From positions 1,763 through 65,762 of the forward strand of contig CANQTY010000003.1 of assembly GCA_947626895.1 (NCBI GenBank): 64,000 bases of DNA, written 5' to 3'. Made by a program: the position numbers and the translations under genes. Source of the stretch: an uncultured Bacilli bacterium (GTDB taxonomy: Bacteria > Bacillota_I > Bacilli_A > RFN20 > CAG-449). Each line of letters opens with the position of its first letter. Position 1 is the stretch's first letter. Below the pieces are notes generated by a model that saw only the letters and a program-made list of their open reading frames with translations, had not been told where the DNA came from and made no database searches. Positions 5,632 to 62,631 of this stretch are shown one piece after another.

Positions 5632-6480
5632 ATGGAAACAAAGATTTTGGTAGATACTGCCGCGGATTTAAGCGAAGAAGAATATAGACAATATGGTTTT
5701 ATCAAGTTTAACTTACCTGTTTTATTTGATGGTGAAGAATATTCTGATATGTCTAATGAAGAATTTTGGCATCGTCTTGAAGAAGGTCAAGTTCCTAAAA
5801 CCTCTCAAGCTTCACCAGAATTATTTCGGGAAGAATTTGAAAAAGCTAAAGAAAATAATTATGCCTTGCTTTGCATTTTGATTTCCTCGAATTTTTCAGG
5901 AACTTACCAAAGTGCTCTAAGAATAAAAGAAGAAGTTGGATACGAACATATTTATATCGTCGATTCTTTATGTGCCTCAGTAGCGGAAAAGACCTTAGCG
6001 CTTAAAGCTTTAGAATATGTTCAACTTGGTTTAGATCCTAAAGATATCGTTCCAAAATTAGATGAATTTAAGCATCATATCCGTCTATTTGCCTGCTTAG
6101 ATACCTTAAAATATCTTGCCCTTGGAGGAAGAATTTCTGTTACTCTTGCAACACTTGGTAATCTCTTAAAACTTCGTCCTATTTTTACTTTTACTGATGA
6201 TGGAAAAATTAAAATTTTAGGAAAAGCCATTGGTCTAAATATGGCTTTTGGAAAAATGATGAATTTAATTAAAAATGAAAAGATTGATAATCAATATCCG
6301 ATTTATCCAATCTATGCAGATAAAGATATAAATATAAGAAAATTTGTAGAAAAAATGGGAAAAGAAGGATATTCTATTGAAGAGAAGAATATCATGGGCA
6401 TTGGTTCTACAATTGGCACTCATATGGGTCCTGGAGGTTTTGGAATCGTCTATGTTCTTCAAAATCCAAAGGATGAGTGA
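5632..6480 (+). CDS. DegV family fatty-acid-binding protein
   Basis: Hallmark SNFSGTYQSA and overall DegV/EDD fold pattern. RBS AAGGAGG is upstream. Confidence 0.85.
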   Translation: METKILVDTAADLSEEEYRQYGFIKFNLPVLFDGEEYSDMSNEEFWHRLEEGQVPKTSQASPELFREEFEKAKENNYALLCILISSNFSGTYQSALRIKEEVGYEHIYIVDSLCASVAEKTLALKALEYVQLGLDPKDIVPKLDEFKHHIRLFACLDTLKYLALGGRISVTLATLGNLLKLRPIFTFTDDGKIKILGKAIGLNMAFGKMMNLIKNEKIDNQYPIYPIYADKDINIRKFVEKMGKEGYSIEEKNIMGIGSTIGTHMGPGGFGIVYVLQNPKDE

Positions 6481-6485
6481 AAGGT

Positions 6486-7196
6486 ATGTTAAAGGCAATA
6501 TTTTTTGATTTAGATGGAACATTATTACCCCTGAATGAAGAGGAATTTACAAAATATTATTTTTCTTTATTAACAAAAAAAGCTAAACCCTATGGTTATG
6601 ATAGTGAGAAACTAATTGATACCATTTGGAAAGGCACTTATTTGATGTATCAAAATGATGGTAAAAAGACGAACGAAGAAGTCTTTTGGGATTATTTTGC
6701 TTCTGTATTCGGCAAAGAATCTTTAAATGATAAAGTCATTTTTGATGATTTTTATGTCAATGAATTTAAAGGTGCAAAAGCGTGCTGTAAAGAGAATCCT
6801 TTAGCAAAAAAAATCGTCTCTTTCTGTTATGAAAATCATCTTCTTCCATTTTTAACTACAAATCCAATTTTCCCTCGCGCGGGGCAAAGCACGAGAATGT
6901 CATTTTTAGGCTTAAAAGAAGAAGATTTTAAATATGTTTCGTATTATGAAAATTCATCTTATTGTAAACCAAATCCTATGTATTTTTTGGATATTTTAAA
7001 TAAATTTAATCTAAAACCAGAAGAAGTTATCGTCTTTGGAAATAATACTTATGAAGATGGAGAATGTGCCTTAAAGGCCAATATTAAATGTTATTTAGTC
7101 AAAGGATTTATTATTTATTCCCCGAAGGCAAAAAATACTTTTGAAGAAATCACAATGGAAGAAATCATTCCTACAATTTTAAAACATTTAGGATAA
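6486..7196 (+). CDS. HAD-superfamily hydrolase
   Basis: N-terminal FFDLDGTL motif. The ATG at 6486 is preferred over the GTG at 6477, which overlaps the degV stop. Confidence 0.7.
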   Translation: MLKAIFFDLDGTLLPLNEEEFTKYYFSLLTKKAKPYGYDSEKLIDTIWKGTYLMYQNDGKKTNEEVFWDYFASVFGKESLNDKVIFDDFYVNEFKGAKACCKENPLAKKIVSFCYENHLLPFLTTNPIFPRAGQSTRMSFLGLKEEDFKYVSYYENSSYCKPNPMYFLDILNKFNLKPEEVIVFGNNTYEDGECALKANIKCYLVKGFIIYSPKAKNTFEEITMEEIIPTILKHLG

Positions 7197-7201
7197 ACAA
7201 A

Positions 7202-7969
7202 ATGAAACAAGTTGCTTTAATTACTGGGGCATCATCAGGAATTGGAAAAGATCTTGCAAAAATTTTAGCTTCAAATCAATATGATTTAATTTTAACAGGA
7301 AGAAATAAAGATGCTCTTCTTTCACTAAAAGAAGAATTAAAAGAGCATGTTTTAGCTATTTTTATTCACGATTTAAGTAAAGAAGAAGAATGTCATAAAC
7401 TCTTTATTGAAACAAAGCCTTATGAAATCACCTGTTTAATTAATAATGCAGGATTTGGAGTTTTTGGGGAATTTATTTCCACGTCGATGGATAAAGAAAT
7501 CAATATGATTAAAACCAATATCATTGCTCCCCAAATACTAACAAAACTTTTCTTAAAAGATTTTGATGAAAGAAAAATTGCAGGTAGTATTGTAAATGTT
7601 TGTTCAGTAGCTGCCTTTTATGCAGGGCCCTTAATGGCAGGATATTACGCTTCAAAAAGTTATCTATATCGTTTAACCTTAGCGCTTCAAGTTGAAGAAA
7701 AGAAAAGAAAATCGAAAATCCATCTGATGGCAGTATGTCCAGGACCAGTTAAAACTAGTTTTCAAGAAACCGCGAATGTCCATTTTGTAAGTCATGCAGT
7801 TTCTAGTGAATATATTGCTAAAAAAATCTATCAAGGATTAAAAAAGAAAAAGAAAATCGTTATTCCTACTTTCTTAATGAAATGTGGTAAATTCTTTTCT
7901 CACTTTGTCTCTGATAAAATGATTGCAAAAATTGCCTATAACTTTCAAAAGAAAAAAGATTCAAAATAA
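7202..7969 (+). CDS. Short-chain dehydrogenase/reductase (SDR) oxidoreductase
   Basis: TGASSGIG Rossmann motif, NNAG and YxxxK catalytic motifs. Confidence 0.85.
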   Translation: MKQVALITGASSGIGKDLAKILASNQYDLILTGRNKDALLSLKEELKEHVLAIFIHDLSKEEECHKLFIETKPYEITCLINNAGFGVFGEFISTSMDKEINMIKTNIIAPQILTKLFLKDFDERKIAGSIVNVCSVAAFYAGPLMAGYYASKSYLYRLTLALQVEEKKRKSKIHLMAVCPGPVKTSFQETANVHFVSHAVSSEYIAKKIYQGLKKKKKIVIPTFLMKCGKFFSHFVSDKMIAKIAYNFQKKKDSK

Positions 7970-24433: not shown

Positions 24434-24854
24434 AATGATGAGAGAAATCATCATGGATCATTACACAAATCCAAGAAATAGAAAAGAAACAGATAATCCT
24501 GCTTACCAAACAGTTTTTATGGATTCTACTTCGTGTATTGATAAAATTTATATCCAAGCATTGATTGAAAATGATGTTTTGGTCGATGTGATTTGGCATG
24601 GCGTTGGTTGTGCTATTTCTACTGCATCGACCTCTATAATGAGTGAATTATTAAAAGGAAAAACGGTTAAAGAGGCAAACTATATCTTACAAGAATATTT
24701 AAAAATGATTCATGAAGAAAGTTATGATGCAGATGTACTTGATGAAGCTGTTGTATTTATGAACACCTCTAGACAACCTGCAAGAATTAAATGTGCAACC
24801 ATCGGATGGAATGGCATGGAAGAGATCCTTAAAGGAGATAAAAAACATGGATGA
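24411..24854 (+). CDS. sufU: Fe-S scaffold / sulfur acceptor SufU (NifU-like)
   Basis: [15 protein letters not shown] and C-terminal CAT(I)GW motifs. GGAGG RBS before 24411. Confidence 0.85.
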
Positions 24855-26238
24855 TATGTTGAAAGATAAGGAATACCAATTTGGTTTTAAAAACGAAGAT
24901 GTTTCTATTAAAAAAACCGACAAGGGCATTTCAGAAGACATTATTAAAGAGATTTCTAAACTAAAGGGCGAACCAAGCTGGATGCTTGAATTTCGTCTTC
25001 GTTCTTATCATGAATTTATAAAGCACCATCTTCCTTCTTTTGGGCCTAAAATCGATTTAGATTTTTCTTCTTATACGTATTTTACTCGTCCAAGTGAAAA
25101 AGAAGAAAAAAATTGGGATGATGTACCTGAGACGATAAAAGAAACCTTTAAACGTTTAGGAATTCCTGAAGCGGAACAAAAATATCTTGCTGGAGTTTCT
25201 ACACAATATGAATCCGAAGTTGTTTATCATAATATGCTTAAAGAAGTAGAGGAAAAAGGAGTAATCTTTTTATCTACAGATATGGCACTTAAAACTTGTC
25301 CAGAATTATTTAAAAAATATTTTAATCATATCGTTTCTTATAATGATAATAAATTTGCTGCCCTTAATGGTGCGGTGTGGTCGGGAGGATCATTTATTTA
25401 CGTACCTAAAGGGGTCAAATTAGAAAAACCTTTACAATCTTATTTTAGAATTAACAATGAAAAAAGTGGGCAATTTGAAAGGACTTTAATCATCGTTGAT
25501 GATGGAGCAGAAGTTCATTATGTAGAAGGCTGTACTGCACCGACATATTCTAAAGAATCTTTACATGCCGCGGTAGTGGAAATTTATGTTGGAAAAGGAG
25601 CAAAATGCCGTTATTCTACCATCCAAAATTGGTCTGATAATATCGTAAATTTAGTTACTAAACGTGCCTTAGTAGAGGAAGATGGCTTAATGGAATGGAT
25701 TGATGGAAATATCGGCTCCATGGTCAATATGAAATATCCTTGCTGTGTTTTAAAAGGCAATAGAGCTAAAGGAAATTGTATTTCTATTGCCGTAGCTACA
25801 AAAGGACAAATTCAAGATGCTGGAGCAAAAATGATTCATATTGGGGAAAATACATCTTCTACGATTATTTCTAAATCTGTTGTTAAGCGCGGAGGAATTG
25901 CAAATTATCGTGGCTTAGTTTCTATTGGTCCTAATTCATTTAATAGTAAAGCTCATGTTGAATGTGATACGTTAATTTTAGATGATATTTCTTCTTCAGA
26001 TACAATTCCCACGAATGAAGTACATAATGATTCATCTTATCTAGAACATGAAGCAACGGTATCAAAAATCAACGAAGATCAATTATTCTATTTAATGTCA
26101 CGAGGCTTAAGTGAAAAACAAGCAACTCAAATGATTATTATGGGATTTATTGAACCATTTGCGAAAGAATTACCAATGGAATATGCTGTAGAACTCAATC
26201 AATTAATCAAAATGGATATGGAAGGTAGTGTTGGTTAA
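24847..26238 (+). CDS. sufB: Fe-S cluster assembly protein SufB
   Basis: Full-length SufB with the SufBD core. The start ATG at 24847 overlaps the sufU stop. Confidence 0.9.
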
Positions 26239-39914: not shown

Positions 39915-40949
39915 TTAGCCCTCAAATTCTTTGAAATATTTTTTTATGATTTTCTCAAAATAGCAATAAGTCGATTTTAAAAGTCCGTTATGAATATAAT
40001 AGTTCCTGCAGAGGATAACTCTTCCAAAAAATAATTCATTGACAGCTTTTTTGATTTCTTGCTTTATATATTCATTTTCAACAAAGATATCAAATAAATA
40101 TAAAACGAAAGTAATTCTTCGGATTGTTGGGTTACTTAATTTATTATTTCTATTTTCTCTACCTATTCCACAATTACTTAAATAATCGATAATCATGGTA
40201 TCATTTAAATTACACGATTTTCTTTTTCTTAACGTGGATAATATATTCTTTCCATGAGCTATTTCATTCCTAAGCTTTTTCAATTCTTTTAGAAAATATA
40301 GATATTTTCTTTGTTCATCTAATTGATATTTAGAAGTAATGTAATCAAAGAATTTTATTTTTTCTCCAAAACTAAGAATTTGAAGAAGATCTTTGGCAGG
40401 AATATTTTGTATTTTTTGACTAATATCAACATTGTATTTATCTAAGATTTTACGTACATTTTCATCATCTTTCATTCTTTGAATACTTTGATGAATTTGC
40501 ATTTTATATTTTTTATCGTTTTCATTTTGAGTATTATGAATTTGATTTTGATCATAATAGTCCTCGTCCATAAAGCCATTGACGACATTAATCCCATCAC
40601 CTTCACCAATTTGTTCAATTTCATTTAGAATTAATGATACTAATCCATGCTCAATTTCAATAATCATTTCAAATAGTAGACTTTTTACCATACTATCAAT
40701 GACATACATATCTTTTAAATATGCAAAATCTAGTTGAGCAAATATTCCTTTTAAATCTCCACGAGGATAAACATTAAATACATTCATATATGAAGTAATA
40801 AAAGAGTAGTTTTTGTGCTTTTCAAGGCATAGTTTTGCCTCAGATTCGTTACAGAGCTCGAACCTTATTCCTTTTTCTTTAAGCAGTGCAATTTCTTCAT
40901 CAACTTTGGATGTAATTGGAATTGCATTTATGGTCATAGTTTTAGACAT
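39915..40949 (-). CDS. Abi_2 family (AbiD/AbiF-like) abortive-infection protein
   Basis: N-terminus ...IALLKEKGIRFELCNESEAKLCLEKHKNYSFITSY matches the Abi_2 N-terminal pattern. A later LRNEIAHG motif is present. Confidence 0.7.
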   Translation of the reverse strand: MSKTMTINAIPITSKVDEEIALLKEKGIRFELCNESEAKLCLEKHKNYSFITSYMNVFNVYPRGDLKGIFAQLDFAYLKDMYVIDSMVKSLLFEMIIEIEHGLVSLILNEIEQIGEGDGINVVNGFMDEDYYDQNQIHNTQNENDKKYKMQIHQSIQRMKDDENVRKILDKYNVDISQKIQNIPAKDLLQILSFGEKIKFFDYITSKYQLDEQRKYLYFLKELKKLRNEIAHGKNILSTLRKRKSCNLNDTMIIDYLSNCGIGRENRNNKLSNPTIRRITFVLYLFDIFVENEYIKQEIKKAVNELFFGRVILCRNYYIHNGLLKSTYCYFEKIIKKYFKEFEG

Positions 40950-41612: not shown

Positions 41613-42206
41613 TTAAATCAATTCACTTTCTTCTTTTGGAGTAAGAATATATAAATCAGGATCAAGAAATCCTTGCTTAGCATCAAATAGTCTTATTTGA
41701 TTATCTTTAGGTAAATAAAATTTTTCTGTACGACTATTATATATTCGATAAGCAGGAAGTTCTTTAATGACAAAGACAGTTTGTTCTTTTCCAATATAAG
41801 TTAATTTAAGTAAATAATTATAGATGTCCTCTAAGGGGAGATTATAATTTAGCGCTACAACACCTTCTAAATCTTCAAGATGAAATCGAATTGAAGTAAC
41901 TTCCTCTATATAATAGTAACCGATTTCTTCCATTAAGGCTTGTCCCCATCCTCCTTCAATAAAGAAAAATTTATCTTTCATGATATAAGTTAAATATAAT
42001 TTACTATTTTTATTTATTTCATCTTTACATTTCTTTTTCTTATCTAATACTCTTTTATCTACTATATCAAAAAGAGTGACTATATCTAAACCTGCAGGTT
42101 CATAGCAATGAACTTTTTTATACGCAAAAGAAATGAGTTCTTCAATAGTTAATTCATCATCAAATATGATTTGAGGCATATCATATATAGAATATACTTG
42201 ATTCAT
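41613..42206 (-). CDS. Hypothetical protein
   Basis: An AAAGGA RBS supports the ATG at 42206 (MNQVYSIYD...). No domain recognised. Confidence 0.45.
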   Translation of the reverse strand: MNQVYSIYDMPQIIFDDELTIEELISFAYKKVHCYEPAGLDIVTLFDIVDKRVLDKKKKCKDEINKNSKLYLTYIMKDKFFFIEGGWGQALMEEIGYYYIEEVTSIRFHLEDLEGVVALNYNLPLEDIYNYLLKLTYIGKEQTVFVIKELPAYRIYNSRTEKFYLPKDNQIRLFDAKQGFLDPDLYILTPKEESELI

Positions 42207-42306
42207 TTCTTTTTCCTTTCTTTTATTTATCAAAAGCATTCTCTAGAGATTTTTATATTGATGAACTTTAAATAAAAAAGCCTAGAGTTAGGCATCATAT
42301 TTAAAC

Positions 42307-42390
42307 TGGTACCCCTAGTCGGACTTGAACCGACACGGATCTCTCCAAACGATTTTGAGTCGTTCGCGGCTGCCATTACGCCATAGGGGC
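42307..42390 (-). tRNA. tRNA-Leu (anticodon CAA), long variable arm, CCA encoded
   Basis: Minus-strand read GCCCCTATGGCGTAATGGCAGCCGCGAACGACTCAAAATCGTT...GTCGGTTCAAGTCCGACTAGGGGTACCA. Acceptor stem is 7 bp (one G-U pair). Anticodon stem AACGA/TCGTT with loop CTCAAAA. T-arm GTCGG/CCGAC. Confidence 0.85.
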
Positions 42391-42495
42391 AAGTGAGGTT
42401 ATTTTATCAAGCTCTAGATAAAATAACAAGGAAATTTAAAAATTCTCTTTTTTCGTAAGGGTATGCTTGAAAAAGTGGGGCTTTCCCCCACTTTC

Positions 42496-44268
42496 TTAAG
42501 CTTCTTGTTTCGATTTATCTTTGATAAATATCGACTCTTCTTCTTTTGATTTTACTTCTCGTTTAATTAGTTTCTTTTCAATTAATTCAACTGTTCCTTC
42601 ATAGGGTAAATAGTAATCTTTCGATTCAAAACTTTCATCTTTTTCTAAACCATATTTCGTCATCACATCTTCAATTAAATCATTACTATAACGAATACGT
42701 TTATCATTTTTTAATCGATACATACAAGGTGTATCTACATAAGATGTATTATTTGATGCATCCTCGACGCCATATTTAGTATCTTTATAAGAATCAACTT
42801 CTAAAGCTAAATAAATACATAATGTATTACCACGGAAAGATAAGCGAATAACACTATTTCTTCCTACATTAAATGTTTCTCTTTTCCAAGACATTCTTGC
42901 TTTGACATTCTTATAAGAAAGAATCTTATTTTTCACTTCAGTATAGTAATTTTTAACTACATCATCTGCTTGAATTAATCTAGCTTGGAAACTCTTATTA
43001 TATCTTAATGTTCCTGCTTCTTGAGAATCAATCACTTCTGGAATAATGATGACTGGTTTTTCTTCTTTTACTTCCTCGACTACCTCAATTTCAGGTTGAG
43101 CTTCTTTTAAATCTTTAGGTTCCTCTAGAACATCAACTAGAAATTCTTTAACTTCTTCTTTTACAGGTTCTTTTTCTTCTTTAACCTTTTCTTTAGAGAA
43201 TATCGACTCTTCTTCTTTTGATTTTACTTCTCGTTTAATTAGTTTCTTTTCAATTAACTCTACTGTTCCTTCATATGGTAAATAGTAATCTTTTGATTCA
43301 AAACTTTCATCTTTTTCTAAACCATATTTCGTCAGCACATCTTCAATTAAATCATTACTATAACGAATACGTTTATCATTTTTTAGTCGATACATACAGG
43401 GTGTATCTACATAAGATGTATTATTTGATGCATCCTCGACGCCATATTTAGTATCTTTATAAGAATCAACTTCTAAAGCTAAATAAATACATAATGTATT
43501 GCCCCTAAAGGATAAACGAATAACACTATTTCTTCCTACATTAAATGTTTCTCTTTTCCAGGACATTCTTGCTTTTACATTCTTATAAGAAAGAATCTTA
43601 TTTTTCACTTCAGTATAATAATTTTTAACTACATCATCTGCTTGAATTAGTCTAGCTTGGAAACTCTTATTATATCTTAATGTTCCTGCTTCTTGTGAAT
43701 CGATCACTTCTGGAATAATAACTACTGGTTTTTCTTCTTTTATTTCCTCGACTACCTCAATTTCAGGTTGAGCTTCTTTTAAATCTTTGGGTTCCTTAAC
43801 TGGAGTTTCTTCAATAATAGGTTCTTCTATTGCATCATCTTTAACTATAATAACTTCTTCTTTTTCTTCTTTATGAGGATTTGGTTTAACATTAATCTTA
43901 TAGATTTCCTCGAAGGACTTATAGTGAACCTTAACAAAGTGTTCTCCTTCTTCTTCCATATTGGGTATTTCTATTTCAAAACCTTCTTTGATCTTTTCTT
44001 TTTTAGGCTTTAAATTATATTTACATTCCAAAACTAATCCTTCACTAGAAAAGACTTCATTATATTCAAAGACTTTCTTTACTTCTTCTGTATTAATCTT
44101 CATATATAATAGCTTTCTTTCTCTTTTCTTGTTCTTTTTAAAGATTAATATAAGAAGTAATACAATCATTAATAAAGAGATTAATACTTCAAGAGCATAT
44201 AACCAAAATAAGGCTGTATCAATCTCCCATGGAATTTCATATCCAAATACTTTAATTGTTGCTATCAT
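42496..44268 (-). CDS. Membrane protein (N-terminal TM, predicted cytoplasmic body) carrying two near-identical ~224-aa tandem repeats; translationally coupled to the giant gene
   Basis: TM helix LFWLYALEVLISLLMIVLLLILIF followed by KKNKKRERK. Two copies of ...LRYNKSFQARLIQADDVV...RGNTLCIYLALEVDSYKDTKYG...EEESIF. The start ATG overlaps the giant ORF stop as ATGA. Confidence 0.7.
   Translation of the reverse strand: MIATIKVFGYEIPWEIDTALFWLYALEVLISLLMIVLLLILIFKKNKKRERKLLYMKINTEEVKKVFEYNEVFSSEGLVLECKYNLKPKKEKIKEGFEIEIPNMEEEGEHFVKVHYKSFEEIYKINVKPNPHKEEKEEVIIVKDDAIEEPIIEETPVKEPKDLKEAQPEIEVVEEIKEEKPVVIIPEVIDSQEAGTLRYNKSFQARLIQADDVVKNYYTEVKNKILSYKNVKARMSWKRETFNVGRNSVIRLSFRGNTLCIYLALEVDSYKDTKYGVEDASNNTSYVDTPCMYRLKNDKRIRYSNDLIEDVLTKYGLEKDESFESKDYYLPYEGTVELIEKKLIKREVKSKEEESIFSKEKVKEEKEPVKEEVKEFLVDVLEEPKDLKEAQPEIEVVEEVKEEKPVIIIPEVIDSQEAGTLRYNKSFQARLIQADDVVKNYYTEVKNKILSYKNVKARMSWKRETFNVGRNSVIRLSFRGNTLCIYLALEVDSYKDTKYGVEDASNNTSYVDTPCMYRLKNDKRIRYSNDLIEDVMTKYGLEKDESFESKDYYLPYEGTVELIEKKLIKREVKSKEEESIFIKDKSKQEA
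42524..43867. repeat. Near-perfect 672-bp tandem duplication inside CDS 42496-44268
   Basis: ATCGACTCTTC... at 42530 recurs at 43202. About 96% DNA identity over about 670 bp. Confidence 0.8.
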
Positions 44269-47200
44269 TCTTCGTCTCCTCCTTCGTCCTTCCTTCTGAT
44301 GACCATAATTATTAAGATACCTAATAAGATAATTTGTAAACCTAATATTACAATGGGTATGCTTAAATCATTTCCTAAAGAAATACCCCTTCTTTGATAA
44401 TTACATACTTTACATGTATTATTTTCAAAATCATGTTCTTCATGTATTGTACATCCATCCACGACACAATAATGTTCATTTTCATTACTTTCATAACTCG
44501 CTTCATGTTCTTCTATATAGCCACATGTTGTACACAAATGAATATGTTTATTATCTTCTTTTAACCATTCTCCATAAGTATGATTGAGCTTTGTTTCACT
44601 TGCCATACCACATACTTCACAAAGTAAATAGTGTCCATTTTCATCATGACCATATATGGAAGTAAAGATATGTTCACCTTCATTAAATCTTGCTCCACAT
44701 ATATCACATACTTGATAATGTTTATTTCCATCAATGTGATAGATTAAATCTTTACTAGAGTGTGCTTCTTTTTCTTTACTTGCATAACCACATACTTCAC
44801 AGATCTTATAATGATGTGTACTATCATATTTATATGTATCTTTAAAGACATGGGCTTCTTTATCATATTCACCACATTTACTACATACGTGATAATGATA
44901 TGTATCATCAAATTCAAAGGTAATAGAATTATCATGTCCTTCAACAATCGTACAATCTTTTCCTACACATCTATGAGATGCATCATCTACTCTTTCCCAA
45001 TGAATTTCATGAGAATCAGTCGCTTCACATCCATCCACTAGACAAGTTCTTACATGGTGATTACCATCGACTTCCCATAGACTCCATTGATGAGATTCTT
45101 CTAGACCACATACTTCACAAATATGATGTTCATGATCTTTATTTTGCCAAATTGGTGCATGATGAATGATGTATCCACATTCACATTGCCCATAATGTTC
45201 ACCATTTACTGTTGCCCATATAAAGTGATGTTCATCACTAATACTTGTTTCATAATCACACACAGAACATTCTTGATGATGTCCTAATTCTTCATCATTT
45301 ACCCAAATTAGATCATGATTCTCGACAATATTACAACCTGAAACAGTACATTTATGTTTGGCTACCGCTACATCATTTTCCCATTGAGCAATATGTGTAT
45401 CATTATAACCACATGTTGTACAAGTTCTATAGTGTATTCCTGTTTCAGTATTGATTGTCCAACTAGTAAAGCTATCATGTTCAACGTGTGTACTTTCTTT
45501 TCCACATACTTCACATACTTGATAATGTCCATCTTTATCACTTGAATATACATCTTTTGGATAGCTATGTTTTTCAACATCATAATGTGCTCCACATATA
45601 CTACATTCATGATAATGATTTCCTTCTTTATCACTTAACCATGTGCTTGATCCATCATGTCCTTGTTTAATATTACAACCTACATAACTACATACATGAG
45701 TTAAGCCATCGCCAGAATCTACATAATTTTCTTTGTGGCTTTGTCTTGATGCTTCTGTATGACAAATTTCACATTCTCTAGTATGCTCATGGGGCGCTTC
45801 TGGATTTAAATCATCTTGCCATTCACCATAAGTATGCGTTTCATTACTGTATTTTTCTTTACAAGTATTACATTCCTTCCAGTGAGATGTGCCATCAGAA
45901 CTCCAAGTTACTTCATCATGGCTTGCTCTATCTTTTTCATATCCACATGAACATGACCACCAGTGCTCTTCATTATTGAAATGTTTCTCAAATGAATGTG
46001 CTGATTTATTGATAATATCCCCGCAGGTATCACAAATTTCATAATGATTCTCACTATCATAAGTAGATGTATAATTATGGGAGGTTCTACTACCAGCTTT
46101 TTCTGCACCACATAAATCACATACTTCCCAATGATCATGAGTATCATGATCATATTTACCATTAAATACATGCTCTTGATTTTCATTAAATCTAGTTCCA
46201 CAGAATTCACATACTTGATAATGATGCCCATCACCAGCATCTTTCCAACTTGAAGAACTATGAGATCCTATATCAATTCTATGCCCACATTTAACACATG
46301 CATGGAAGTGAATATTTTCCTCGACTTGCCAATCTAATTTATAACTATGCTCTTCTTTTGTAGATTCTATTGCTCTATTACATACATCACATACTTGATA
46401 ATGGAATTCTCCATATTCAATATATTTATTACTAAATTGATGCTCCCCTTTATTAAATTGAGCATGGCAATCATCACATACTTGATAATGATAATTTCCT
46501 GTTTCATCAAGATTATATCCTCGTGAAGAATGATGTGATGTTTCACTACCCGTTTCCTTATGTCCACATTCATCACATACTTTCCAATGTACTTCACCAT
46601 TCTCTTCATACTGATAGGTATTATAGTGATGCTCAGAACGATTGATTTCTTTACCACATGAACATACTTGATGATGTTCTTCACCAGAAATTACATATTC
46701 TGTTGCACTATGTGAACGTAATTGATCTTTATATTGACATACTGTACATTCTTTCCAATGTGTTTCATCATTATATTTCCAAGTATCATCATAAGTATGA
46801 GAACCTCTAGCAAATTCTATACCACATTCTTTACATACTTTATAATGTTGATTTTTTACTAAATCCATAATATAACCATCGGAAGTATGTTCTACTTCTT
46901 CTGTTTTATATCCACATATTGAACATTCTTGATAATGTTTCGTTTGATCTTCTGTTTCTTTCCATTCTAAACTATGTCCAGAAAGTTCTCCTTTATATCC
47001 ACATTCTTTACATACTTTCCAGTGATTTGTTCCATCTTTTGACCATTCTACACCTTCATAATTATGTGCTTTGCTACCATACGTAGCACCACATACTTCA
47101 CATATATGATAGTGATTTTCTTCCGTGGCATAGTAGTTATTTGTTAATCCTGATTCTCCTTTATCTGGAGTATGGTCGTTTCTTTCAAATTCTGCGCCAC

Positions 47201-59924: not shown

Positions 59925-59952
59925 GCAAAACCCTTATTCGGTAAAACAATAG

Positions 59953-59962
59953 CCCCCCCCCC
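59953..59962 (-). promoter_or_regulatory. Homopolymeric G10 (C10 on plus strand) tract in the putative promoter spacer of the giant gene
   Basis: Minus-strand read: TTGACT-tttccaacGGGGGGGGGG-cTATTGT...AAGGG-6nt-ATG. The tract lies between a -35-like TTGACT (59971-59976) and a -10-like element. Confidence 0.5.
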
Positions 59963-59991
59963 GTTGGAAAAGTCAATAAATTGATGTGAAA

Positions 59992-60324: not shown

Positions 60325-62631
60325 TTAATTCTGTAACGCTTTCTTTTGATCTAAATACTTATTGATAAAGTGAATCACTACTCCACATATGATAAATAAA
60401 GGTAAGATGATAAAGATAGTCCACCAGAAAGAAAGCACTAGATAAACAATACAAGAAGTAATATAAGAAGTGACTAACCAGAAGACTATTGTAGAACCTA
60501 GTTTCTTTTTAGGTAACTCTGCTTTCGCGGTCGCTACCGCGGCAAAGCAAGGAATCGTTGTCATATTAAAGGTAATAAAAGAAATTAAACTAGGCCAAGT
60601 AATTCCAGTAGCCTCAATCATTGCCACTGTTTCAATAATACCATCATCACTTGCTTCACTTAAAGCTCTAATTTGATCAATTACTTCTGGAGATATAACA
60701 AGAGTGCCCGCTTCGGCATGAGAGATAATACAAATAGCTAACGTATAAAATGTAGCAATGACATTTTCTTTAGCAATTAATCCTGTGACCGCAGCAACCG
60801 CAAATACCCAACCAAAAGAAGCAAGCTGTACACCAAATCCTAAAGGAGTAAATATAGGTTGAATAAATTTACCTAAAGAAGCTAAAATCGATTCATCCAT
60901 AGCGCCATCTACATAGCTCCAATTCCAAGCAAAATTCGATAAGAACCAAATCACAATCGTCGAAGCTAAAATAATTGTAAAGGCCTTTTTAATAAAGTGT
61001 TTTAATTTATCCCATAGATGGACCATCAAGGCTTTTCCTTGAGGTATATGATACGAAGGTAGCTCCATAATGAAAGGAGGTACATCTCCTTTCATCGAGG
61101 TATTACGCATAATAATTACCGAAATAATTGCTGTAAGCATTCCAATAATATACATAGCAAAAGTAATGAAATCTGCATTCCCTATATGGAAATGTTCTAC
61201 AATTCCCCCGGCTATCGCGGTTAATATTGGTAACTTAGCTCCACAGCTAAAGAAAGGAATCACACGAATCGTTGCAGTTCTTTCTTTATCATCTGCAAGA
61301 GTTCTCGTGTTGATCATTGCAGGTACACTACAACCAAAGCCCATGATCATTGGCATAAAAGCTCTACCAGATAAACCAAAACGACGGAAGATACGATCTA
61401 ATATAAAAGCCACACGAGCCATATATCCAGAATCTTCTAAAATAGAAAAGAATAAGAATAAAAGGAGTATCTGGGGTAAAAAAGATAATACAGCGAATAA
61501 GCCTCCTAAAACACCATCGACAATAAAACTAGATACCCATGCTTCTGCATTCCATAAAGTAAGTAAATCACTTACTCCATCAGAAATTAATGTCGTAATA
61601 CTTTCTAATAGATTAAATAAAATCACTCCTGGAGAATTAATCCCTCCACTAGTCCATAATAATCCTTCGAAAGGAGAATCAGCAAAACTTGGAGGAACAT
61701 CACTAAATAAGAAACCTAAAAAGAATAAGTTTTCTGAAAAAGTAAGATGAAAGACAACTAATAAGATGATTAAGAAGATAGGAATACCTAACCACTTATT
61801 AGTCAATACTTTATCAATTTTATCTGAACGCGTAAGCTTCTCTTTACTTGTTTCTTTTTTAGATAATGCTGGAGAAAAGTTTTTAGCGATATATTGATAA
61901 CGTCTATCGGCAATAATCGCTTCAAAATCCCCTCCAAAGGTATCATCTTTAAAAGTAGCTTTAAAGTCCTCTACAATCGGTAATAAATCTGGGTGATCTT
62001 GAATTTCTAATTCATCTTTTTCCACAAGTTTTATCGCATGAAATAAAGGATGATCAATATTTTTCCCTTTAAAAGCAATCTCTACATCTTGAATCAAATG
62101 TTTTAAAGCAGAATCCATTAAAACAGTCTTACCTTTTCTAGAAATGAGTGAAGCTTCATAAGCTTTATTCATCAATTCATCTAGATGTTCTTCTTTTAAA
62201 GCACTAATCTCTACGACAGGAACACCAATCTTTTTTTCTAAAGCTGAAACATCAATACTATTTCCATTTTTCTTTACCACATCCATCATATTTAAAGCGA
62301 TAACAATAGGAACATCAATTTCTAATAATTGGGTGGTTAAATATAAATTTCTTTCTAAATTAGTCGCATCGACAATATTAATTACACAACTAGGTTTTTC
62401 TTCAAGAATATAGTTTCGAGAAATCACCTCTTCAGGAGTATAAGGAGATAAAGAATAAATTCCTGGTAAATCAATAATTTCTAAAGGCTCTTTTAATTTT
62501 TTATAAACTCCTTCTTTTTTATCTACTGTAACTCCTGGCCAATTGCCCACGTGGGCAGTTGACCCAGTAAGGGAATTAAATAAAGTGGTCTTACCACAAT
62601 TGGGATTACCCGCTAAAGCAAAACGTTTCAT
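60325..62631 (-). CDS. feoB: Ferrous iron transporter FeoB
   Basis: N-terminal G-protein domain (GNPNCGKTTLFN, DLPG) plus a polytopic membrane domain. 768 aa. Confidence 0.95.
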   Translation of the reverse strand: MKRFALAGNPNCGKTTLFNSLTGSTAHVGNWPGVTVDKKEGVYKKLKEPLEIIDLPGIYSLSPYTPEEVISRNYILEEKPSCVINIVDATNLERNLYLTTQLLEIDVPIVIALNMMDVVKKNGNSIDVSALEKKIGVPVVEISALKEEHLDELMNKAYEASLISRKGKTVLMDSALKHLIQDVEIAFKGKNIDHPLFHAIKLVEKDELEIQDHPDLLPIVEDFKATFKDDTFGGDFEAIIADRRYQYIAKNFSPALSKKETSKEKLTRSDKIDKVLTNKWLGIPIFLIILLVVFHLTFSENLFFLGFLFSDVPPSFADSPFEGLLWTSGGINSPGVILFNLLESITTLISDGVSDLLTLWNAEAWVSSFIVDGVLGGLFAVLSFLPQILLLFLFFSILEDSGYMARVAFILDRIFRRFGLSGRAFMPMIMGFGCSVPAMINTRTLADDKERTATIRVIPFFSCGAKLPILTAIAGGIVEHFHIGNADFITFAMYIIGMLTAIISVIIMRNTSMKGDVPPFIMELPSYHIPQGKALMVHLWDKLKHFIKKAFTIILASTIVIWFLSNFAWNWSYVDGAMDESILASLGKFIQPIFTPLGFGVQLASFGWVFAVAAVTGLIAKENVIATFYTLAICIISHAEAGTLVISPEVIDQIRALSEASDDGIIETVAMIEATGITWPSLISFITFNMTTIPCFAAVATAKAELPKKKLGSTIVFWLVTSYITSCIVYLVLSFWWTIFIILPLFIICGVVIHFINKYLDQKKALQN

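Follow-up and report, generated by a model that had tools for sequence, protein, structure and literature searches.

We examined a gene for a 590-amino-acid (aa) membrane protein in a 64,000-nucleotide stretch of DNA from an uncultured Bacilli bacterium (contig CANQTY010000003.1 of assembly GCA_947626895.1; this whole stretch is called the window below), where it lies directly downstream of an open reading frame (ORF) of 5219 aa. We propose that the 590-aa protein is a separately encoded cytoplasmic tail subunit, or foot, of the giant surface protein encoded by that ORF, and we give this reading a probability of about 0.6. A conserved α/β domain of about 165 aa, present in two copies in the 590-aa protein, would serve as a tail module, on the cytoplasmic side, for large surface proteins held by a C-terminal transmembrane (TM) anchor in uncultured gut Bacillota. 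The module would be fused behind the anchor (in cis) in some organisms and be supplied as a separate downstream subunit (in trans) here. An earlier note on this DNA, made from the sequence alone, had suggested a cytoplasmic partner or anchor for the giant protein, an idea now backed by the adjacency of such genes in related loci and by fusion proteins.

The stop codon (TGA) of the giant ORF and the ATG start of the 590-aa gene overlap in the tetranucleotide ATGA, as had been read before, and a GGAGG Shine–Dalgarno sequence lies 9 nt before the ATG, within the end of the giant ORF (coordinates of all features are collected in Table 1). The two marks of translational coupling, a stop/start overlap and a ribosome-binding site inside the upstream ORF, are thus both present. 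Past the stop codon of the 590-aa gene, after 5 nt, comes an intrinsic-terminator hairpin (GUGGGG-GAAAG-CCCCAC followed by U5), which gave a folding energy of -18 kcal/mol and a z-score of -4.1 when positions 42462-42500 were folded; it was absent from the list produced by a consensus terminator scan. Because of the ATGA overlap, the Shine–Dalgarno sequence and the terminator after the stop, the giant gene and the 590-aa gene look like a two-gene unit that is co-transcribed and translationally coupled, in line with the co-expression proposed earlier. A fusion of the two products by readthrough or frameshifting was rejected, since the TGA is followed by an in-frame TAG and no slippery heptamer is present.

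The 590-aa protein has 177 homologues at E<=1e-3, and a look-up of the exact product gave no record. It begins with an acidic N-terminal tail of 22 aa, predicted to face outward, in which a family motif (FG-x-E-x-x-W...ALFW) is found that most homologues also carry at their N-termini. The single TM helix (aa 23-43), with a Glu in mid-membrane, and the lysine/arginine (K/R) cluster KKNKKRERK that follows it are as the earlier note had described them. K/R residues make up 8 of the 15 positions after the helix and none of the 15 before it. Counted in the same way, over 15 residues on each side, 101 single-TM homologues had a mean of 0.50 K+R before the TM and 3.40 after it, and the count was higher after the TM in 92 of them. 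Both domain copies lie C-terminal to the TM, on the K/R-rich side, with no later TM. The 590-aa protein is accordingly predicted, from charge bias, to be bitopic, with its N-terminus outside and its C-terminus and body in the cytoplasm.

The body had been described as two copies of one domain. The repeats stood, and a degenerate Big_3-like immunoglobulin-like (Ig-like) domain between the TM and the repeats (aa 52-127) had been overlooked. This segment aligns with four Big_3 repeats of the homologue P0002 (BLASTP E 2e-12 to 2e-6; P numbers are our labels for family proteins), and one of these repeats (625-681) is a Pfam PF07523 match. The 590-aa protein itself gave no Pfam match to PF07523 even at E<=1, so that the gathering threshold was not reached and the assignment is transitive only, by homology through P0002. 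An acidic linker rich in Glu, Pro and Lys lies between the Ig-like domain and the domain copies, and the protein ends 5 residues past copy 2.

Linkage to a giant gene recurs in other genomes. A scan of the species representatives of GTDB with an alignment of 10 closer sequences returned 79 loci (the best 63% identical), mostly from metagenome-assembled genomes (MAGs) of rabbit-gut Clostridia, together with Erysipelotrichales and Christensenella. In 37 of the 79, a same-strand ORF of at least 969 aa ends 1-132 nt upstream of the domain gene or overlaps it slightly; most of these ORFs exceed 2600 aa and run off the 10-kb flank. Against this, ORFs that large account for 6 of 259 other neighbouring genes. 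A C-terminal TM helix with a short K/R tail, as in the giant of the window, closes 35 of the 37 upstream ORFs. Their ectodomains gave no BLASTP match to that of the window's giant and contain 0.1-2.7% Cys, compared with 6.6%. With the ectodomains unrelated and the TM and K/R ending kept, the conserved unit would be any C-terminally TM-anchored giant followed by a TM-anchored protein with a cytoplasmic domain. The window fits this in trans arrangement, its same-strand giant ORF ending in ...IPIVILGLQIILLGILIIMVIRRKDEGGDEE at the ATGA overlap.

The same unit is found as one polypeptide. At least 900 residues precede the first domain copy in 34 of the 144 top members of the domain family, and most of these 34 fused proteins are 1600-4700 aa long. 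The layout of P0219, P0131 and P0177 runs from a signal peptide through a huge ectodomain, one or three TMs, a K/R cluster and an acidic linker to 2-3 domain copies, usually with a C-terminal domain that passes the Pfam threshold for uL15; the ectodomains of these three comprise β-helix, Listeria-Bacteroides repeats and others. Exactly one TM lies between ectodomain and domain in 13 of the 34, and 11 of these 13 have a signal-like hydrophobic segment at the N-terminus. A signal peptide with a single TM, as in P0177, places the domain in the cytoplasm, so the claim of a cytoplasmic body draws both on these fused giants and on the charge bias of the homologues. In the remaining fused giants, a crude predictor found two strong hydrophobic segments, the second of hairpin length with K/R on both flanks, from which we infer that they probably have three TMs. 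We regard the fused proteins as the Rosetta-stone version of the giant and its partner. Matches between the N-terminus of the partner and the TM region of the fused giants were weak and driven by hydrophobic composition, and no homology is claimed.

The two membrane helices offer a hint of how giant and partner might meet. Among 38 pairs, a mid-membrane polar residue, usually Gln, occurs in the anchor helices of 33 giants, and Q/E occurs in the helices of 25 partners; the two largely co-occur. This co-occurrence fits a pairing of the helices and is suggestive only, because partners without a giant beside them carry the Gln as well and because the loci are phylogenetically related. Under our proposal, the C-terminal anchor helix of the giant would just have reached the membrane when the ribosome completes the protein, and the ATGA overlap with its Shine–Dalgarno sequence would let translation of the partner begin at that spot. 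The short acidic N-tail and the TM of the partner would insert beside the anchor of the giant, parallel to it and in N-out/C-in orientation. We infer that the parallel helices, with Gln in the giant's and Glu in the partner's, probably associate, and that the giant would in this way be given a folded module inside the cell, tethered by a flexible acidic stretch.

Several observations weigh against this proposal. In about half of the 79 loci, the place upstream is taken not by a large ORF but by unrelated housekeeping genes (e.g. a tRNA-synthetase-like gene), which means that the protein can exist without an adjacent giant. The Gln in the TM of such giant-less partners may have self-association as its role. 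Most of the adjacency counts derive from rabbit-gut MAGs that are related to each other, and they lack phylogenetic independence. A Pfam scan found the uL15 domain (PF00828), usual in the fused giants named above, to be absent from the 590-aa protein. Finally, a cytoplasmic site sits oddly with a Big_3 domain; Big_3 Ig-like domains (PF07523) are typical of extracellular proteins, in which they are normally stalk domains.

The giant-less loci, the Gln in their partners and the existence of soluble, TM-less versions of the protein (P0139, P0185 and P0077) would all suit a different reading, in which the 590-aa protein works independently at the membrane: it would share a transcript with the giant without binding it, and its conserved domain would have a cytoplasmic task of its own there. 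The adjacency would then reflect shared regulation or synteny within one clade. Against such a reading stand the excess of large upstream ORFs over the background of neighbouring genes, ectodomains that vary while the TM and K/R ending stays, the fusion of the domain behind the TM anchor of a giant in 34 of the 144 top members, and the ATGA coupling at the window locus. We consider it unlikely and retain the tail subunit as the preferred reading.

The domain was modelled with AlphaFold2 from a 45-sequence alignment. The model of one unit reached a predicted local distance difference test score (pLDDT) of 92.5 and a predicted template modelling score (pTM) of 0.85, and it is an α+β sandwich with a short C-terminal extension. 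In a model of both copies, each domain exceeded a pLDDT of 90, the linker fell below 50 and the pTM was 0.43. A pseudo-dimer packing of the two copies was rejected on account of this pTM and the disordered linker; the domains are predicted to be beads on a string, with no packing between them. The domain core has an isoelectric point (pI) of 8.85. Features matched by the domain profile are RY-x-[RK]-SF, KN, SWKRE, RG-x-TL, DTP and PYE...L-I-x-x-G-L-I-K, and S17, Y33 and L153 are invariant in the domain alignment. Both window copies fit the profile over ~175 residues, copy 1 by construction and copy 2 not.

Sequence searches bore out the earlier description of the domain as unknown. In Pfam and NCBIfam the 590-aa protein gave only sub-threshold noise (PNGase_F-II_N, PhetRS_B1), and a sequence-profile search of the PDB with the domain gave 0 matches at E<=10. 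A Foldseek search of the PDB with the model returned nothing at E<=1e-3; its leading matches were YdhG-like/DUF1801 proteins (9t2w, 2oc6) and the YjbR family (2fki, 3h9x). The top three had probabilities of 0.93-0.98 and E-values of 0.017-0.04, and 3h9x was weaker (E 0.42, probability 0.47); TM-scores were 0.42-0.57 when normalised by the target and 0.30-0.40 when normalised by the query. The modelled domain would thus be only remotely similar to YdhG and YjbR in fold.

The domain belongs to a large family that is undescribed until now, and literature searches gave nothing on it. The 590-aa gene is a clean representative of this family, whose tie to giant surface proteins shows in gene order as well as in gene fusion. 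A profile search of 1.84 billion representatives yielded at least 3586 clusters at E<=1e-3, 1774 of them at E<=1e-30. All sources are MAGs, of Clostridia, Erysipelotrichales or Bacilli, and the names given to the proteins are ‘hypothetical protein’, ‘bacterial Ig-like domain-containing protein’ and ‘uL15 family ribosomal protein’. The TM precedes the domain in nearly all members that are not fragments, and none of those examined had a TM after it. Many members have 1-5 Big_3 repeats between the TM and the domain.

Two kinds of additional domain recur in the family. A uL15-like domain (PF00828) stands at the C-terminus of P0131, P0177 and P0092, with scores of 35.6-53.5 bits against a cut-off of 21.5. 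P0207 (2603 aa), P0092, P0103, P0105 and P0107 are membrane proteins of 566-2603 aa that are publicly annotated as ‘uL15 family ribosomal protein’, because of the uL15-like domain that follows the conserved domain at the C-terminus. The annotation is misleading, though the domain match is real; a literature search on giant proteins with uL15 or PF00828 found nothing relevant. The soluble proteins P0139, P0185 and P0077 combine 2-6 domain copies with DUF2357 (PF09823, above the Pfam threshold), a second, non-membrane context for the domain. The C-termini of P0004 and P0123 carry a segment of ~60 aa (GI[PE]VVGVMFRRRGRKVYWFDPDGK.WEKGE...) that resembles the start of PSP1/RicT by eye and has no Pfam match. 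In a Bacilli MAG (locus L055, positions 5727-6482 and 6495-7553), an ORF just upstream of the domain gene shares the N-terminal motif and the TM IKVFGHEYDWDLDTTM with it; judging by this shared sequence, it is probably a tandem paralogue restricted to the N-terminal part.

What such a foot might hold inside the cell is a matter of conjecture. That it docks onto something anionic in the cytoplasm, for instance nucleic acid or the ribosome, is a tentative guess and at best rather unlikely; it is prompted by the basic core (pI 8.85), by the uL15-like and DUF2357 fusions and by the likeness to YjbR proteins, which are ‘double-wing’ predicted DNA binders (PMC7641849, PMC3424535). The PSP1-like tail of P0004 and P0123, recognised by eye, counts as a weak clue of the same kind. 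More improbable still is a specific form of this guess, in which giants with a paired TM or a fused anchor would be wired to a cytoplasmic array of double-wing-like, often also uL15-derived, domains that binds RNA or ribosomes. If true, it would be a dedicated device for coupling outside to inside and a new class of tether between the membrane and ribosomes or nucleic acid. Two conceivable uses are to keep the polysome or mRNA of a 15-kb gene at the membrane during co-translational export, and to signal engagement of the ectodomain to the translation machinery.

A nucleic-acid reader might also act in defence. On this account, the 590-aa protein would be a sensor of the double-wing-like type, reading DNA or RNA, in an island with tRNA-Leu and an Abi_2 gene, both of which lie nearby. 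Its residues 429-535 match the PADLOC candidate PDC-S18 (PDLC04945, E 1.5e-12), residues 49-196 of P0185 match PDLC04946 (E 2e-13), DUF2357 fusions occur, and the best fold matches are YjbR-type predicted DNA binders. However, PDC-S18 is a candidate only, and a literature search for it found nothing. The match covers profile positions 193-300 of 302, leaving the first ~190 unmatched; it is thus confined to the shared domain, which forms the C-terminal third of the PDC-S18 model. Searches of phage and plasmid collections with tblastn gave no match, the terminator and the tRNA lie between the gene and Abi_2, and giant surface proteins are the dominant context of the family. We regard a defence role as quite improbable.

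It is very improbable that the topology is reversed, with the TM acting as signal anchor and both the Ig-like domain and the repeats outside as a wall-proximal base or co-adhesin: the usual extracellular place of Big_3 domains and the occurrence of acidic Pro/Glu-rich linkers in wall-spanning regions too would favour it, whereas the K/R bias of the 590-aa protein and its homologues, the single-TM giants whose signal-like N-terminus places the domain inside, the two-TM variants with K/R on the N side and the homologues in which this end carries a uL15-type ribosomal domain all speak for a cytoplasmic body.

Comparing the gene with itself gave a single best offset of 672 nt, or 224 codons, in frame, which confirms the tandem duplication noted earlier. 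The highly similar parts of the two copies differ at 35 of 617 nt (94.3% identity), with an identity of 95.8% in a 597-nt core, and 200 of 211 aligned residues are identical at the protein level; in the linker part of the unit the copies are only 74% identical. Tandem Repeats Finder made no report of the repeat, since the 672-bp period exceeds its maximum of 500. Within the core, 21 differences are synonymous and 4 non-synonymous, with 0.20 synonymous substitutions per synonymous site (dS), 0.008 non-synonymous substitutions per non-synonymous site (dN) and a dN/dS of 0.04. The mismatches are scattered along the unit, and the longest identical run is ~100 nt. This pattern points to purifying selection on both copies for considerable time. 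The duplication thus appears to be real and of some age, neither fresh nor continuously homogenised, with both domain copies probably functional. It corrects the idea of a fresh and unstable internal repeat, and the very recent duplication or ongoing gene conversion that had been put forward finds little support.

Variation in copy number between strains, which the earlier note thought probable, is unproven. The sole single-copy version (P0001/L001; 366 aa, i.e. 590 minus 224) is on a 2259-bp short-read contig from Logan, and its flanks match the window at 100% identity. Along the repeat, the diagnostic sites form a mosaic: 16 agree with copy 1, the next 6 with copy 2, the next 2 with copy 1 and the last 11 with copy 2. 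Three switches have the look of a repeat collapsed in a small-k de Bruijn assembly, and a single recombination would give one. The mosaic therefore argues for short-read collapse rather than one crossover, and it implies that both copy variants exist in that independent sample.

The same contig bears on whether the duplication is itself an artefact of assembly, in which the haplotypes of two strains were joined head to tail while the true gene has a single copy (366 aa). In favour of this are the 99% identity of the single-copy version, obtained in an independent short-read assembly, and the source of the window, which appears to be metagenome-assembled, exact matches to its GroEL and FeoB being found only on metagenomic contigs. 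The presence of both variants in the mosaic, the unique junction formed by the diverged linker, the intact frame and low dN/dS of both copies and the frequency of multi-copy architectures in the family make an artefact highly improbable. Among 121 sequences (the 590-aa protein and 120 homologues), 96 have one domain copy, 23 have two and 2 have three, and the exhaustive profile search found 1-7 copies per protein; copy number is labile across the family. P0002 (902 aa) has its own near-identical internal duplication, of about 310 aa and comprising a Big_3 repeat and the domain, so that recent tandem duplications recur independently in the family. The duplication in the window is in itself ordinary protein-repeat evolution, which adds a second bead to a flexible string.

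The giant ORF gave no Pfam domain in a Pfam scan. It contains 9.2% His in addition to its 6.6% Cys, with 123 CxxC motifs at a spacing of about 30 aa and 86 H-x(1-3)-CxxCG motifs, and consists almost entirely of short Cys/His modules; its product may be an extracellular string of zinc-knuckle-like beads. The C-terminal 700 aa have weak homologues only (best E 4e-19, cohesin/SLH/FN3 proteins). Upstream of its ATG, at 29-38 nt, a run of ten G (G10) lies in the 19-nt spacer between a -35-like TTGACT and a -10-like TATTGT (59946-59976, minus strand). It is the only run of eight or more G in the 64-kb window, where 0.12 would be expected at 31% GC, and is a possible slipped-strand switch for phase variation of the giant and partner operon.

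The window is chromosomal and carries GroEL, SufB and MnmG. Its GroEL has exact matches on metagenomic contigs only; relatives stand at 89-93% identity, and the nearest named one is Candidatus Onthovivens merdipullorum (Bacilli) at 74%. Homologues of the partner protein fall from 99% (same strain) directly to 45%. This drop, together with the weak homologues of the giant, gives the operon the look of an accessory and fast-evolving one beside the tRNA and Abi_2 genes, and the region beyond tRNA-Leu(CAA) has the appearance of a tRNA-adjacent accessory island. No conserved third gene was found downstream among the loci. An OmpR-type response regulator on the same strand lies within 4 kb downstream in 14 of about 72 loci (L003 and 13 others), a recurrence that might reflect no more than synteny between related MAGs. 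FeoB, SufB and the weak fold match make an iron or metal theme conceivable, but the Cys/His-poor giants elsewhere lend it no support; an iron link built on the YdhG/Fra-like fold, the FeoB neighbour and the Cys/His-rich giant was set aside, since the other giants of the family are poor in Cys and His and the fold match is weak.

Table 1. Positions in the window of the 590-aa gene, the giant ORF and neighbouring features.
Feature	Position	Strand	Basis
Gene for the 590-aa membrane protein	42496..44268	-	ORF list and sequence; ATG start
ATGA overlap (TGA stop of giant ORF / ATG start of 590-aa gene)	44265..44268	-	read from sequence
GGAGG Shine–Dalgarno sequence	44278..44282	-	read from sequence
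Intrinsic-terminator hairpin and U5	42470..42491	-	
N-terminal 22-aa tail, MIATIKVFGYEIPWEIDTALFW, acidic, predicted outward	44203..44268	-	charge bias; motif common to homologues
Single TM helix, aa 23-43, LYALEVLISLLMIVLLLILIF, mid-membrane Glu	44140..44202	-	hydropathy scan
K/R cluster KKNKKRERK, aa 44-52, cytoplasmic-side marker	44113..44139	-	sequence
Degenerate Big_3-like Ig domain, aa 52-127	43888..44115	-	BLASTP to P0002 Big_3 repeats
~165-aa α/β domain, copy 1, aa 195-361	43186..43686	-	AlphaFold2 model; profile
~165-aa α/β domain, copy 2, aa 419-585	42514..43014	-	phmmer domain table
DNA repeat copy 1, highly similar part of 672-bp duplication	43186..43802	-	
DNA repeat copy 2	42514..43130	-	
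Giant upstream partner, 5219 aa, Cys/His-rich, signal-like N-terminal segment	44265..59924	-	ORF list
C-terminal TM helix of giant, IPIVILGLQIILLGILIIMVI, mid-membrane Gln, then 10-aa tail RRKDEGGDEE	44298..44360	-	
G10 tract between -35-like TTGACT and -10-like TATTGT	59953..59962	-	
tRNA-Leu(CAA)	42307-42390		
208-aa ORF, no assigned family	41613-42239	-	
Abi_2 (abortive-infection-like) gene, weak HEPN_Apea match	39915-40949	-	
FeoB (ferrous iron transporter), directly upstream of giant gene	60325-62631	-	
SufB	24793-26238		

Giant bacterial surface proteins are usually discussed by their ectodomain alone. Our findings hint that such giants may be connected to something inside the cell, be it nucleic acid, the ribosome or another dock, and may be more than passive appendages. 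The domain family provides an annotation handle for thousands of metagenomic proteins and a putative two-protein membrane complex that can be tested.

Compared with known systems, each part of the 590-aa protein has a counterpart from which it departs. The Big_3 (PF07523) alignment of aa 52-127, made through P0002, is to a domain that is degenerate and, by topology, cytoplasmic here. Carriers of uL15 (PF00828) in the family are membrane proteins of 400-4700 aa and not ribosomal proteins, and the 590-aa protein is without that domain. PDC-S18 shares the domain only, and the genomic context here is a surface-protein operon. Literature searches turned up no equivalent two-gene arrangement. Ebh of S. 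aureus is a giant Gram-positive surface protein with a C-terminal TM anchor, and in LapA-type systems a retention module anchors and retains giant adhesins. In those systems, similarly, a small element at one end holds a very large ectodomain at the envelope; there is no homology to them, and the anchor here would be extended by a folded cytoplasmic module that is either fused or separate, with its own TM.

For the domain itself, the best structural matches are MmcQ/YjbR (PF04237; 2fki, 3h9x) and YdhG-like DUF1801 (PF08818; 2oc6, 9t2w). What the model would share with this fold (‘double-wing’ or CyaY/frataxin-like) is a sandwich in two layers, with helices lying on an antiparallel sheet, over the first ~120 residues of the domain; by sequence, neither family was matched in the Pfam, NCBIfam and PDB searches described above. 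Unlike YjbR and DUF1801 proteins, the domain is about 45 residues longer, has a conserved C-terminal extension (the P-Y-E...L-I-x-x-G-L-I-K motif) and occurs in tandem arrays tethered to the membrane. We conclude that it may best be seen as a divergent double-wing/YdhG-like α/β domain that forms the cytoplasmic end of TM-anchored giants.

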